Assembly: GCA_964481155.1 (NCBI GenBank)
Contig: CAYZSX010000002.1
Location: 1-57,529 of the forward strand
Length of the DNA: 57,529 bases
Direction of reading: 5' to 3'
Source: an uncultured Candidatus Saccharibacteria bacterium
GTDB taxonomy: Bacteria; Patescibacteriota; Minisyncoccia; Phycocordibacterales; UBA9973
In this document: positions 19,970 through 57,529 of the stretch, one piece after another
Layout of the letters: the number at the start of each line of letters is the position of its first letter
Position numbering within the stretch: the stretch's first letter is position 1
Position numbers and translations under genes: made by a program
The notes under the pieces: model-generated
What the model was told of the DNA's origin: nothing
Databases searched by the model: none
Seen by the model: only the letters and a program-made list of their open reading frames with translations

Positions 19970-22234
19970 CTATTTCGCCACTTTCACCGCTTCATCAAAC
20001 TTGATCGAGAGGAGTTTGGATGCGCCGTCAGAACCGAGAGTGACACCGTAGAGGACATTTGCGCGACTCATAGTCTCGCGGTTGTGGGTCACGACGATGA
20101 GCTGTGAGTATTCACTGAGTCGCTCCACCATATCGCCATATCGGCGAGAGTTGGCTTCATCGAGCGCTGCATCAGTCTCGTCGAGGACAAGAAATGGTGG
20201 TGGGTTGACCTGACTGATCGCAAAGAGAAGCGCGATCGACACAAGGGATCGTTCGCCACCAGAGAGCATGGTGAGTTCTTTGACCTTTTTCTCGGGGAGG
20301 TTCACATGCACCTCGATACCGCGTTCCATGAAGCGATCATCACCACTGTCTTCTACTTCATCTATATCAGAGAGCTCAGTATCGCTTTTTTTCTTGCGGC
20401 GCTTTTCAGTAGTGATCGAGAGAAACGCGCTTCCCCCACCAAACATGGTTTTGAAAAATTCACTGAAGCGTTCGTTGATGATTGCGACACCGCTCGTGAA
20501 CTTGTCATCGAGCACCTTTTTGAGATCAATGATGAGGGTCTCGAGGTTGCGGATCGAGGCTTCGATATCAGCAACTTCTCGCGCGAGAAATGCATCACGC
20601 TCTACTGTACTTTCATACTCACCCACCACTTCATGGCCGATGCCTGCGTGTTCATCAAGACGGATCTTGAGCCTGTCGATCGAGCGCTTGAGATCGTGGA
20701 GATCGATCTCGGGTGTCCCAGCAGTTTGTTGGAGTCGGTGGATCATCTGCGGACCAAAGATCACCGCAGCTTCTTTGAGCTCTGTATCAAAGATCTGCTT
20801 GCGCTCCGCCCAGGTACTGTGGCTTGCCGAGAGGATGTGAAGCTCAGCATTGCACTCAGTGAGCTGTCCTTGGATCTGGTACCGCGCAGCTACTGCGCTT
20901 TGTTGCGCTTGTGCATGGGCATCACGATCACGCTCAAGTGTTTCGATTGTTTTTCGCACAGATGTTTCTTGTTGGACAATCTGCACAAGGGTATGCTGTA
21001 CGTCTTCGAGTTCACGCGCCATATCAGCGATCGTATCTCTATCAGTCTGTGCTACTTGCTTATCACCCTGAGAAGTTTGTGGCTGACGAGCGCGAAGTGC
21101 CTGTATGATTGGCGTGATCTGTCCAAGTGCGCGCTCAACATCAGCAATCGTCTGCGCGGCCCCAATCGTCTGGATACCATACTCAAGGTCTGTGAGAAGC
21201 TGTGCGTACTCGGTCGGCGCAAATGTGATACTCGGCCCTGCGGCAGGTGTGCGCTCATGCATGAGTCTACGCTCAACTTCGATCATACCTTCGAGACGCG
21301 CGATGCGACTTTCGAGAGAGCGACGTTTTTCTCGAAGCTCGTCGAGCGCGTTTCGCTCGCGAGCAATGTCGTGATGGTGCTCACTCACCGATTCTGCAGG
21401 GAGCGATGCGAGCGCGCGCTCGAGATCTTGTTTTTTGTGTTGGAGAAGCTGTATCGCGCTCATGATACGAGTTTCTTCTTGAGCAAGGTGCATCTTTTCG
21501 GTAGCGAGGTATTGGACAAGGAGCCCTTCGAGCTCTGTACGAATCGTTTTACCTTTTTCTATTTTTTCAACTTGTTTTTTGAGAAATGAAAGGTGAGGCG
21601 CAAGTTCGCGACGAAGCGACTGGACATCTTTGAGGGTGTCTATACTTTTGATGAGTTTTGATTCGCTTTCTTTGATACGGTAGTGATAGATTTTGAGCCC
21701 AAGCGCTTCCTCGAGCATCTCTCGTCGCTCGCGCGCGTTGACGCGCAAGATACTGTCAGCTTCACCCTGAGAGATGATGTGGTGGCTCGACGCGCCAATG
21801 TTGACCGATGAGAGGAGCTCGATCATCGTCTTGAGTCTGATTTCTGTACCGTTCATGAGGTACTTACTCGTCCCATCTGCAAACAACTCACGAGTAAATG
21901 TGATCGTATCAAACAACACTGGCGTATCTGATTGCTCAGCACCTTCACGAAGCGGAAATGCAAAGACATTGTCACTGTTGTCAAACGTGATTGAGACCGA
22001 TGCGCGTGAGAGTTTGGCAGCACCATTTGATCCACGAAAGATAAGGTCGGCGCCTGTCTTGCCGCGCATACTTTTCATGGACTGCTCACCAAGGACAAAG
22101 CGAAATGCTTCAACCACATTGGATTTACCCGATCCGTTGGGACCTACGACCGCAGTGACTGGTGCGGTAAACGACAGATTGCTCTTTTTAGCAAACGATT
22201 TAAACCCGGCTATCTCGATGTGCTGGAGACGCAT
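19970..22234 (-). CDS. smc: SMC-family chromosome segregation ATPase, short form without an obvious hinge
   Basis: 754 aa. Canonical SMC head halves: N-terminal FKSF...VVGPNGSGKSNVVEAFRFVLGEQS, C-terminal LSGGERSLVSIALLFA and FLVLDETDAALD. The middle is Glu/Arg/Leu-rich coiled coil. Confidence 0.85.
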   Translation of the reverse strand: MRLQHIEIAGFKSFAKKSNLSFTAPVTAVVGPNGSGKSNVVEAFRFVLGEQSMKSMRGKTGADLIFRGSNGAAKLSRASVSITFDNSDNVFAFPLREGAEQSDTPVLFDTITFTRELFADGTSKYLMNGTEIRLKTMIELLSSVNIGASSHHIISQGEADSILRVNARERREMLEEALGLKIYHYRIKESESKLIKSIDTLKDVQSLRRELAPHLSFLKKQVEKIEKGKTIRTELEGLLVQYLATEKMHLAQEETRIMSAIQLLQHKKQDLERALASLPAESVSEHHHDIARERNALDELREKRRSLESRIARLEGMIEVERRLMHERTPAAGPSITFAPTEYAQLLTDLEYGIQTIGAAQTIADVERALGQITPIIQALRARQPQTSQGDKQVAQTDRDTIADMARELEDVQHTLVQIVQQETSVRKTIETLERDRDAHAQAQQSAVAARYQIQGQLTECNAELHILSASHSTWAERKQIFDTELKEAAVIFGPQMIHRLQQTAGTPEIDLHDLKRSIDRLKIRLDEHAGIGHEVVGEYESTVERDAFLAREVADIEASIRNLETLIIDLKKVLDDKFTSGVAIINERFSEFFKTMFGGGSAFLSITTEKRRKKKSDTELSDIDEVEDSGDDRFMERGIEVHVNLPEKKVKELTMLSGGERSLVSIALLFAISQVNPPPFLVLDETDAALDEANSRRYGDMVERLSEYSQLIVVTHNRETMSRANVLYGVTLGSDGASKLLSIKFDEAVKVAK

Positions 22235-46729: not shown

Positions 46730-46816
46730 CGGAGGATGAGAGATTCGAACTCTCGAACGAGTTACCCCGTTGCCACCTTTCCAAGATGGTGCACTAGACC
46801 GCTATGCGAATCCTCC
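46730..46816 (-). tRNA. tRNA-Ser (anticodon GGA)
   Basis: The reverse complement is GGAGGAT-TC-GCAT-AGCGGTCTAG-TGCA-CCATC-TTGGAAA-GGTGG-CAACGGGGTAACTCGTTC-GAGAG-TTCGAAT-CTCTC-ATCCTCC-G. This gives a 7-bp acceptor stem, a long variable arm, the T-loop TTCGAAT and anticodon GGA. CCA is not encoded. Confidence 0.9.
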
Positions 46817-56384: not shown

Positions 56385-56498
<114 letters not shown>

Positions 56499-56846
56499 GT
56501 GCGCTCGAATATTTATTTTTTTCCGCCGGCTGGCGGATTATGATTTCCAGATTTCCTAATAGGACTTGGGCAATTAGTACACCTTGGCTCAACGCATTGC
56601 TGCGCTTCCACCTAGTGCCTATCAACGTGATCATCTCTCACGGCCCTCAAACGATACCTTATCTTAGAACTGGCTTCCCTCTTAGATGCTTTCAGAGGTT
56701 ATCCATTCCGAACATAGCTACCGGGCGGTCCAGCTGGCGCTAGAGCCCGTACACCAGAGGTTCGTTCACTCCGGTCCTCTCGTACTAGGAGCGAACTTCT
56801 TCAAGTATCAACGCCTGCAGTAGATAGGAGACCAACCTGTCTTACG

Positions 56847-57489
56847 CTTCTTTTCATTTGTTACCAAATGGAATGGACTATATCTTCTTCTCAAAATAAA
56901 TTGAGAAGCTCAACGTGGTTGTAGTCTCTAGAGGTTCTGTGTAAGATGGTTTTTCAATCTTTCTAATTCATCCTCTAAACGAATTCTTTCGGCGTCTTGC
57001 TCTGGAGTTAATTCTTCCTTTGCTTTGAATTTTCCGCGAAGATATATGTACTGACTAATGTCCGTATAAACTCCTTCATAAGAATTAGTTTTAGTTTCAG
57101 AATTATTTTGAATTTTTTCGATATTTTCCATATCCTTAATATACCACAGATTCCCTCGGAATTGTCCAAATAAATTTGGATTCTTCCGATATTAGTTGAG
57201 CATGTACATATACATCGCTGTATATGACCGCCGTAACTGATTGGTTTCTTTATTACTATCTTTCTCTCATGTGCTTTTGCAGAAAAACACACGAGCTTTA
57301 ACCTTATTAGACGAAAAGACTAAAACATATTTTATATGTGAATGTTTTTATAAAAAACATTTCAAAAAATTTCCTCAAGGATTCAGACGGTGAGTCAGTC
57401 AAAAGAGACTTGAACTCATGAGTATCACGCAAACAAGAGTCGTAACCCTTCGTTCCGTACACTACAATGATAAAACTTTTCACTTCCTC
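56847..57489 (-). other. 643-nt AT-rich intervening sequence in 23S rRNA (candidate group I intron or CPR-type rRNA insertion)
   Basis: Conserved 23S sequence stops at ...GGGTTCAGACCGT (57490) and resumes at CGTAAGACAGGTTGGTC (56846). Joined, the two ends recreate the conserved ...AGAACGTCGTGAGACAG... region as I recall it for E. coli. The upstream exon ends in U and the insert ends in G, as group I introns do. Boundaries are good to within a few nt. Confidence 0.75.
56928..57131 (-). CDS. 67-aa ORF inside the 23S insertion, of uncertain function
   Basis: MENIEKIQNNSETKTNSYEGVYTDISQYIYLRGKFKAKEELTPEQDAERIRLEDELERLKNHLTQNL. The frame stays open a further 20 codons upstream but has no ATG there. 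No LAGLIDADG, GIY-YIG or HNH motif is visible. Confidence 0.3.
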   Translation of the reverse strand: MENIEKIQNNSETKTNSYEGVYTDISQYIYLRGKFKAKEELTPEQDAERIRLEDELERLKNHLTQNL

Positions 57490-57529
57490 ACGGTCTGAAC
57501 CCAGCTCGCGTACCTTTTTAATTGGCGAA

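Follow-up and report, generated by a model that had tools for sequence, protein, structure and literature searches.

We propose that the 643-nt insert near the right end of the 57,529-nt stretch of DNA analysed here (the window) is a group I intron of a member of the Patescibacteria (CPR), located in helix 93 after U2593 of the single 23S rRNA gene. The intron has no endonuclease gene, its P1 loop is enlarged, and we infer that it is removed by canonical splicing. This explanation as a whole is given a probability of roughly 0.88. Assignment to group I at site L2593 is supported by the terminal U and G and by the presence of P1, P10 and P2 to P9 with covariation. Comparison of sequences has established the anatomy and the homology of the intron, as well as the covariation of its P1-adjacent, P10, core and exon-binding helices.

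The insert and its 23S rRNA setting

The minus strand carries the 23S rRNA gene, which extends beyond the right end of the window. The conserved 23S sequence on that strand halts at 57490 with ...GCGAGCTGGGTTCAGACCGT and restarts at 56846 with CGTAAGACAGGTTGGTC; the junction strings read on the minus strand are ...GGGUUCAGACCGU at 57490 and CGUAAGACAGGUUGGUC from 56846. The insert occupies 56847-57489 on the minus strand, and the same length of 643 nt was returned by a script locating both exon motifs. It is preceded by U, its final base is G, and its GC content is 33.7%, against ~0.51 in the 3' part of the 23S gene. Another assembly of this organism has a longer contig, to which the Rfam bacterial LSU model aligned continuously from 2029 to 2886, with a single gap of 649 versus 6 nt at the position of the insert in helix 93. 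An earlier note, made from the sequence alone, had described a 643-nt AT-rich insertion splitting the 23S gene at 56847-57489 and had proposed an alignment to the bacterial LSU model. Both the exon motifs and the gap in that alignment place the boundaries exactly where the note had them, to the base, and the AT-richness holds as well. The note had also put the site near E. coli 2590-2600, in the neighbourhood of L2593. Counted by hand from the E. coli landmarks U2585 and A2602, which we take as fixed points, the insert falls after U2593. This numbering, made without a tool, agrees with the '2593' hot spot of CPR 23S genes in PMC11270868. The features of the region are as follows.

57490..57529, minus strand: 5' exon, the final 40 nt of 23S rRNA preceding the intron (~E. 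coli 2554-2593); Rfam LSU fragment, model 2580-2608
56847..57489, minus strand: group I intron, 643 nt, in helix 93 after U2593; exon motifs and partial matches to Rfam Intron_gpI
56566..56846, minus strand: 3' exon, 23S rRNA from C2594 to the 3' end, starting CGUAAGAC; Rfam LSU 226.7 bits over 56566-56810 (model 2656-2912)
56386..56495, minus strand: 5S rRNA gene, downstream of 23S; Rfam 74.6 bits

The window takes in just 40 nt of 5' exon upstream of the insert, and the remainder lies beyond its end; in another assembly of the same organism, the 5' exon sequence of the window joins upstream 23S sequence without a break. The 23S gene is split across contigs, with model positions 15-1782 on contig C9 (1-2006) of the same genome, the window beginning at ~2580, and another assembly reaching back to 2029. 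Model stretch 1782-2029, which takes in the published 1917, 1931 and 1952 intron hot spots, is absent from the assemblies examined, and further introns may be present there. The window also holds a tRNA gene with a long variable arm at 46730-46816 on the minus strand (Rfam, 49.7 bits).

The group I core and the L6 filler

In permissive mode, the Rfam model Intron_gpI (RF00028) matched the 3' part of the insert with 31.7 bits (E 5e-6) and the P4-P6 region with 17.2 bits (model 60-143). The segment comprising J8/7, P7 and P9 (GAAGAUAUAGUCC plus hairpin) aligned almost perfectly to the model, in an alignment that covers AAGAUAUAGUCC. The window copy stays under the gathering score of 50 bits because the L6 filler of ~205 nt splits the model. 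Homologues score 58.1, 57, 55.9, 53.3, 52.2 and 50.5 bits, and one close relative 32.3. Group II introns are marked by a 5' GUGYG, a 3' AY end and a domain V. The insert begins with GAGGAA and ends with GAAG, and in the permissive Rfam scan no group II family matched even at E values up to 10, for which reasons a group II intron was rejected.

All core helices from P2 to P9, including the P3/P7 pseudoknot, can be drawn on the window sequence. They are listed here in the 5' to 3' order of the intron.

57208..57225, minus strand: P2 hairpin with GCGA (GNRA) loop, intron 265-282; six pairs with 4-6 standard pair types each in 69 sequences; RNAalifold
57195..57201, minus strand: P3 5' strand GCUCAAC, intron 289-295; pairs with 56908-56914; covariation
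57156..57189, minus strand: P4-P5 domain, P4 UCGGAA/UUCCGA (intron 301-306 with 329-334) and P5 UCCAAA/UUUGGA (intron 310-325); partial Rfam match, model 60-143; covariation
57146..57155, minus strand: P6 5' strand (GGG..UCUGU), intron 335-344; pairs with 56931-56940; RNAalifold
56931..56940, minus strand: P6 3' strand (ACAGA.CCUC), intron 550-559; pairs with the P6 5' strand
56921..56930, minus strand: J6/7 and P7 5' strand, UAGAGACUAC; conserved in all homologues
56908..56914, minus strand: P3 3' strand GUUGAGC, intron 576-582; covariation
56887..56908, minus strand: P8 hairpin, intron 582-603; Rfam alignment, covariation and RNAalifold
56876..56886, minus strand: J8/7 and P7 3' strand (AAGAUA UAGUC); aligned to the Rfam consensus with high posterior probability
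56855..56870, minus strand: P9 hairpin with GUAA loop, intron 620-635; all six pairs covary; RNAalifold
56847..56847, minus strand: terminal G (omega G), intron 643; a 3' G also ends 25/25 introns from relatives

Introns are found at exactly the same site in the genes of 25 relatives. Together with the insertions from a one-genome-per-species scan (at least 120 matches, those listed being mostly Patescibacteria assemblies, with some Acidimicrobiaceae and others), they make up a set of 93 insertions. The pairs of P2, P3, P4, P5, P7, P8 and P9 are kept in 69 non-identical homologues among the matches listed, where most positions show between three and six of the standard pair types. In P7 (intron 564-568 with 610-614), the fifth pair is A-U in 55 of these 69 and G-C in the other 14. 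RNAalifold, applied to 18 short homologues with exon flanks, independently gives P2-P6, P8, P9 and P10, with compensatory double changes at 44 of its 65 pairs. The earlier note had taken the exon-terminal U and the insert-terminal G to fit a group I intron and had proposed a scan with Rfam group I and group II models and a search for P3-P9 by folding. The scan returned Intron_gpI, at a score below gathering, and no group II family; the helices were found; and the same ends recur in relatives.

The window copy departs from its homologues in a few respects. P6 has one G.U pair, J6/7 reads CUAGA versus GUAGA in most homologues, and the P6 loop is swollen by ~205 nt, so that the P4/P6 motif lies 220 nt from J6/7 versus 13-47 nt in most relatives. 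The swelling could slow folding. With the swollen L6, the one changed base of J6/7 and the competing 5' stem described below, this copy may fold slowly or need host factors. Two features fill the loop.

56941..57145, minus strand: L6 filler of 205 nt separating the two P6 strands, intron 345-549; LAGLIDADG genes of relatives sit here
56928..57131, minus strand: 67-aa ORF inside L6, from the ORF list; its stop is the UAG of J6/7

The filler has 30% GC (204-nt slice). No homologue of it was found in 50 other genomes of the genus or elsewhere in its own genome, and the same search space yielded no further copies of the intron. Related introns of ~670-750 nt carry L6 ORFs of 145-177 aa with the motif AGFLDGDGS, single-motif LAGLIDADG proteins of the I-CreI kind; L097 and L105 are LAGLIDADG-bearing introns of the same structural class as the window intron. 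In these related introns, the UAG of J6/7 likewise serves as the stop of the LAGLIDADG ORF. A protein profile built from 9-12 related L6 endonucleases gave only a weak match to the C-terminal part, in one frame of the filler (E 1.7), and a DNA profile (nhmmer) gave none. With no Pfam match either, an intact endonuclease ORF is absent, and a mobile LAGLIDADG intron of the I-CreI type was rejected. Judged by its position, the filler is possibly the last trace of a decayed endonuclease gene.

It might be argued that the intron is not ORF-less and that the 67-aa ORF encodes a working small protein, for example a novel maturase or nuclease. The ORF is intact, it is identical on 9 contigs of other assemblies, and it sits at the position of the homing-endonuclease gene of the family with the same UAG stop. 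Against this, a search of 5.8 billion proteins, restricted to similar lengths, returned only the ORF itself; Pfam gave no match, the Atlas (features included) no usable one, and structure comparison only generic helical look-alikes; and none of the 50 other genus genomes has a homologue. The Lys/Glu/Asn-rich composition is as expected from filler of 30% GC, an AAGGA motif stands just one base before the AUG, and the Atlas model is of low confidence (pLDDT 0.61). We consider a working protein unlikely, and the ORF is most likely meaningless. The intron is thus read as endonuclease-less, in keeping with the earlier note, which had listed a 67-aa ORF and had seen no LAGLIDADG, GIY-YIG or HNH frame. 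Its suggestion of an intron that has lost its endonuclease is supported by the absence of the gene from the loop where relatives have it; the core helices, P1 and P10 are intact.

The displaced guide sequence, the 5' domain and splicing

According to the earlier note, no internal guide sequence could be placed near the 5' end of the insert. None is there, since an elaborated P1 loop has moved GCGGUC ~260 nt further downstream. The complementary GCGGTC reported at about 290 nt is indeed the guide, able to pair with GACCGU, but its position is intron 259-264.

57226..57231, minus strand: GCGGUC, the P1-forming half of the internal guide sequence, intron 259-264; 6-bp pairing with 5' exon GACCGU, U.G at the splice site
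57232..57236, minus strand: UUACG, the P10-forming half of the internal guide sequence, intron 254-258; partner of 3' exon CGUAA, as RNAalifold also predicts

P2 and P3 come directly after the guide sequence, as they do in group I introns generally. An exact match to ACGGCGG is present in 74/93 insertions and missing from 19/93; within the 74, GCGG is universal by selection (among the matches listed). The guide is at 6 nt from the splice site in L098, which has a plain P1 hairpin in the textbook position, and at ~30 nt in six more of the 74 listed. P10 covaries with the exon across these 74: CGUAA exons go with UUACG or AUACG in 21 and CGUGA exons with NCACG in 50, a G.U pair occurs in 3, and there is no A/C mismatch. 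At exon position +4, the pair with the guide is accordingly A-U in 21, G-C in 50 and G.U in 3 (among the matches listed). This covariation of host exon and guide is the best available evidence for canonical splicing of L2593 introns. The helix-93 tetraloop of the exon (window 56839-56846, minus strand, CGUAAGAC) reads GUAA throughout the sampled genomes of the genus, versus GUGA in most relatives outside it; the guide sequence of the intron is altered in step with the GUAA tetraloop.

The enlarged P1 loop has a common plan. In 65 insertions among the listed matches it measures 50-250 nt and opens with a hairpin (hairpin A), a linker of 3-4 bases and a 10-nt element. Both elements are found in the window.

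57392..57489, minus strand: hairpin A, a long stem-loop closing on the first intron base, intron 1-98; minimum-free-energy fold, compensatory stem changes across homologues
57379..57388, minus strand: element (a), GUCUGAAUCC, intron 102-111; complementary to exon -13 to -4, GGGUUCAGAC (~23S 2581-2590), 10/10 pairs

The exon bases complementary to element (a), ~23S 2581-2590, include the peptidyl-transferase residues G2583-U2585. Variants of the element match variants of the exon, with CAGAC-GUCUG, CAAAC-GUUUG, UAGAC-GUCUA and UAAAAC-GUUUUA as partners, and a U-to-A exon variant with a matching change in the element is present in the wider set. For 60 introns among the matches listed, the element was chosen by its own consensus, blind to the adjoining exon. 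In these 60, exon -6 and element position 3 form G-C in 50, A-U in 8 and G.U in 2, while exon -8 and element position 5 form C-G in 59 and U-A in 1; neither position shows a mismatch. When the exon labels were shuffled 10,000 times, the observed level of pairing was never reached; this statistic ignores relatedness. At least three different exon types are compensated, in addition to G.U intermediates. In the seven introns with the guide near the splice site, the element is short in six (GAACC or GAACCC pairing with GGGUUC) and absent in L098, which suggests a stepwise growth of the 5' domain.

It should be mentioned that intron 112-253 (window 57237-57378), between the exon-binding element and the guide, contains the motif UUUUAGUCUUUUCGUCUAA (57307-57325), which is conserved and can be recognised in different families. 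Also present is a hairpin whose loop reads CUGCAA, and differences in its stem among members of the genus are compensatory. By this conservation, the stretch does not appear to be junk. A reading frame at the 5' end of the intron (58 aa, or 73 aa if read in from the exon) was rejected as a gene: relatives are frameshifted in the homologous stretch, and the frame is therefore regarded as part of a hairpin that does not code for protein.

In the lowest-energy fold of the 5' domain, the splice site lies within one long stem. The U at the splice site is opposite the first base of the linker in 64/65 class A introns (A in 57, G in 7), G-2 faces C or U, and C-3 is unpaired in 59 (65 class A introns listed). 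With this U paired to A and not to the guide G, P1 must compete with an alternative structure. The arrangement has led us to weigh whether P1 is in fact this long 5' stem, so that most members would have U-A where cleavage takes place and GCGG would serve another role. Such a reading would account for the pairing of the splice-site U just given and for a stem that shows covariation to either side of the splice site. Group I introns, however, follow a near-universal rule of U.G wobble pairing at the cleavage site. GCGG gives U.G in every member selected by ACGGCGG, including the one with its guide at 6 nt and the six at ~30 nt, and the sequence directly 5' of GCGG varies in concert with the 3' exon, as expected of a true guide. 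We regard the 5' stem as a very improbable P1 and retain GCGGUC as the guide.

The splicing route proposed for this intron follows standard group I chemistry. At rest, the 5' splice site would be buried in one long stem made of hairpin A and the pairing of the 10-nt element with exon -13 to -4. With the splice site inside that stem, the last four exon bases must shift to the guide sequence; they would be handed over while the upstream helix can stay and hold the 5' exon. GCGGUC (intron 259-264) would then form P1 with the last six exon bases GACCGU, with the U.G wobble at the cleavage site, which a free guanosine bound in P7 would attack. Finally, UUACG and the five bases that open the 3' exon would form P10, the terminal G would be used in exon ligation, and helix 93 would be restored. 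Splicing itself, the order of these events and the role of the extra helix are what we infer from the structure and its covariation.

A more specific proposal concerns the family as a whole. L2593 introns of this kind may recognise their 5' exon twice, by a P1 of 4-6 bp and by a separate 10-bp helix between the P1-loop element and 23S 2581-2590; with hairpin A, the splice site would be buried in a stem that would need rearranging to give P1. On the exon strand, the upstream helix directly adjoins P1; the two could stack there, and jointly they would form a pseudoknot. This dual recognition, with its pseudoknot topology, is offered tentatively, as an arrangement that may well turn out otherwise. 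If true, the upstream helix may retain the 5' exon past the first splicing step, may block folding of the catalytic-centre strand until the intron leaves, or may serve endonuclease-less copies as a 13-nt reverse-splicing address in rRNA. A LAGLIDADG gene is kept in 2/65 introns with the full element versus 5/7 guide-near introns (listed matches, relatedness uncorrected).

Public wastewater contigs from two metatranscriptome and two DNA runs were compared over the intron and its exons. DNA covers the whole intron at ~7-8x, and RNA is heavy on the exons and leaves most of the intron bare; these are contigs, not reads, and many organisms contribute to the exon depth. A direct joint of the two exons (56847 to 57490) occurs in the DNA runs and also in one of the RNA runs.

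Decay of the core to a dead relic, with its swollen L6 and altered J6/7, would leave the intron unspliced, and either the rRNA gene would be non-functional or the insert would stay in the ribosome. The Rfam score under threshold and an L6 filler unique to the species are in line with this. All core helices, P1 and P10 are nevertheless intact in the window copy. The genome of the host (0.50 Mb, 24 contigs) is estimated to be 97% complete and one 23S gene was found in it, so this copy must function, and the ribosome would probably not tolerate an insert of 643 nt in helix 93, part of the peptidyl-transferase centre. The identical sequence also recurs in assemblies of several samples and studies. 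Such a relic is highly improbable. An intervening sequence excised by RNase III or another host nuclease, leaving a fragmented 23S with unligated exons as in Salmonella or Leptospira, is hardly credible: the 5' domain is a long near-perfect stem, the preferred type of RNase III substrate, but that stem takes in ten essential exon bases, a spacer would have no reason to keep a complete group I core, a guide and an exon-covarying P10, and known CPR spacers of the RNase III type are at other sites (23IS2, 23IS4) in PMC11270868.

Host, relatives and comparison with known systems

As far as sequence identities reach, the host is placed in the Patescibacteria and no finer. Its nearest labelled genomes conflict, with SecD 61% identical to a 'Nomurabacteria' assembly and the 3' end of 23S ~85% identical to assemblies labelled 'Saccharibacteria'. 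A published statement holds that Saccharibacteria are without rRNA introns; with the host placed only to Patescibacteria, no contradiction of it is claimed. The organism, an ultrasmall bacterium, recurs in activated-sludge and wastewater runs of several studies. Every genus relative with both exon sides assembled carries the intron, at lengths of 362-647 nt. Outside the genus, homologous introns are present in many other Patescibacteria, and four relatives from the same order have an uninterrupted 23S sequence here, which supplies the comparison with intron-lacking genes that the earlier note had proposed.

Two further introns or insertions were seen in passing. On contig C10 of the same genome (~20075-20627; L045:1233-1785), a second group I intron of 553 nt (Rfam, 71 bits) lies within a tRNA gene and contains a 113-aa ORF with an HNH motif (CANCH...H). 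When the flanks are joined after ...CCUGU and after the terminal G, ARAGORN finds tRNA-Asn(GTT), split between anticodon bases 35 and 36. In a genus relative (G002, contig C2) that also carries an L2593 intron, the sarcin-ricin loop is interrupted by a 787-nt insertion (L018:869-1655; AGUA|CGAGAGGACC, after ~A2657), with a 161-aa LAGLIDADG ORF; its site matches the published '2657' hot spot.

Alone, the window intron is one more endonuclease-less group I intron at a published CPR rRNA hot spot. It accounts for the break in the 23S assembly and for gene mis-calls by rRNA-based tools. The exon-intron covariation at two separate contacts is of wider use, as direct evolutionary evidence of canonical splicing in organisms that cannot be cultured, and the second exon-binding helix would be a natural case of extended substrate recognition by a group I ribozyme.

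Three known systems invite comparison. Intervening sequences of 23S rRNA processed by RNase III are located in helices 25 and 45. They are likewise extra bacterial 23S sequences to be removed, but they differ from the window intron in site and in having neither a ribozyme core nor exon ligation. The insert, in helix 93 and with a full group I core, was rejected as a member of that class of stem-loops in helix 25 or 45. The closest known counterparts are the CPR introns at 2593, which share host group, insertion site and intron class with the window intron. The survey of Tsurumaki et al. (2024; PMC11270868) classifies CPR insertions with Rfam and Pfam, gives 2593 (site 23IS12) as one of the places where group I introns and LAGLIDADG genes are concentrated, cites Brown et al. 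(2015) as the first to note introns there, and reports that CPR insertions are removed from transcripts and form a patchwork of copies with and without endonucleases. The suggestion of the earlier note that the insert may be one of the rRNA insertions reported for CPR bacteria is borne out by that hot spot, and the three readings of the note, group I intron, endonuclease loss and CPR insertion, are compatible with one another. No description of the displaced guide, the exon-binding element or the exon/guide covariation was found in the survey. Nor was the exon-binding helix found in Haugen et al. (2007; PMC1995217), and an earlier description elsewhere is possible; the upstream exon-binding element may be the one feature of the family not yet known.

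The third system is formed by the cyanobacterial L2593 introns and the I-CreI intron of the Chlamydomonas chloroplast (Cr.LSU). The cyanobacterial introns occur in Synechococcus C9, S. lividus C1 and Thermosynechococcus elongatus, and their P7.1 and P7.2 have been described (Haugen et al. 2007; PMC1995217). These introns occupy the same site as the window intron and have a short P5 and a single-motif LAGLIDADG gene. In CPR introns whose guide is ~30 nt away from the splice site, P7 and P3 are separated by two additional hairpins that resemble the cyanobacterial P7.1/P7.2. The window intron, in contrast, has no P7.1/P7.2 and no endonuclease gene, and has a P1 loop of ~250 nt and a 10-bp helix with the upstream exon. 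It is an ordinary intron for its group, apart from the second exon-pairing element of its family.
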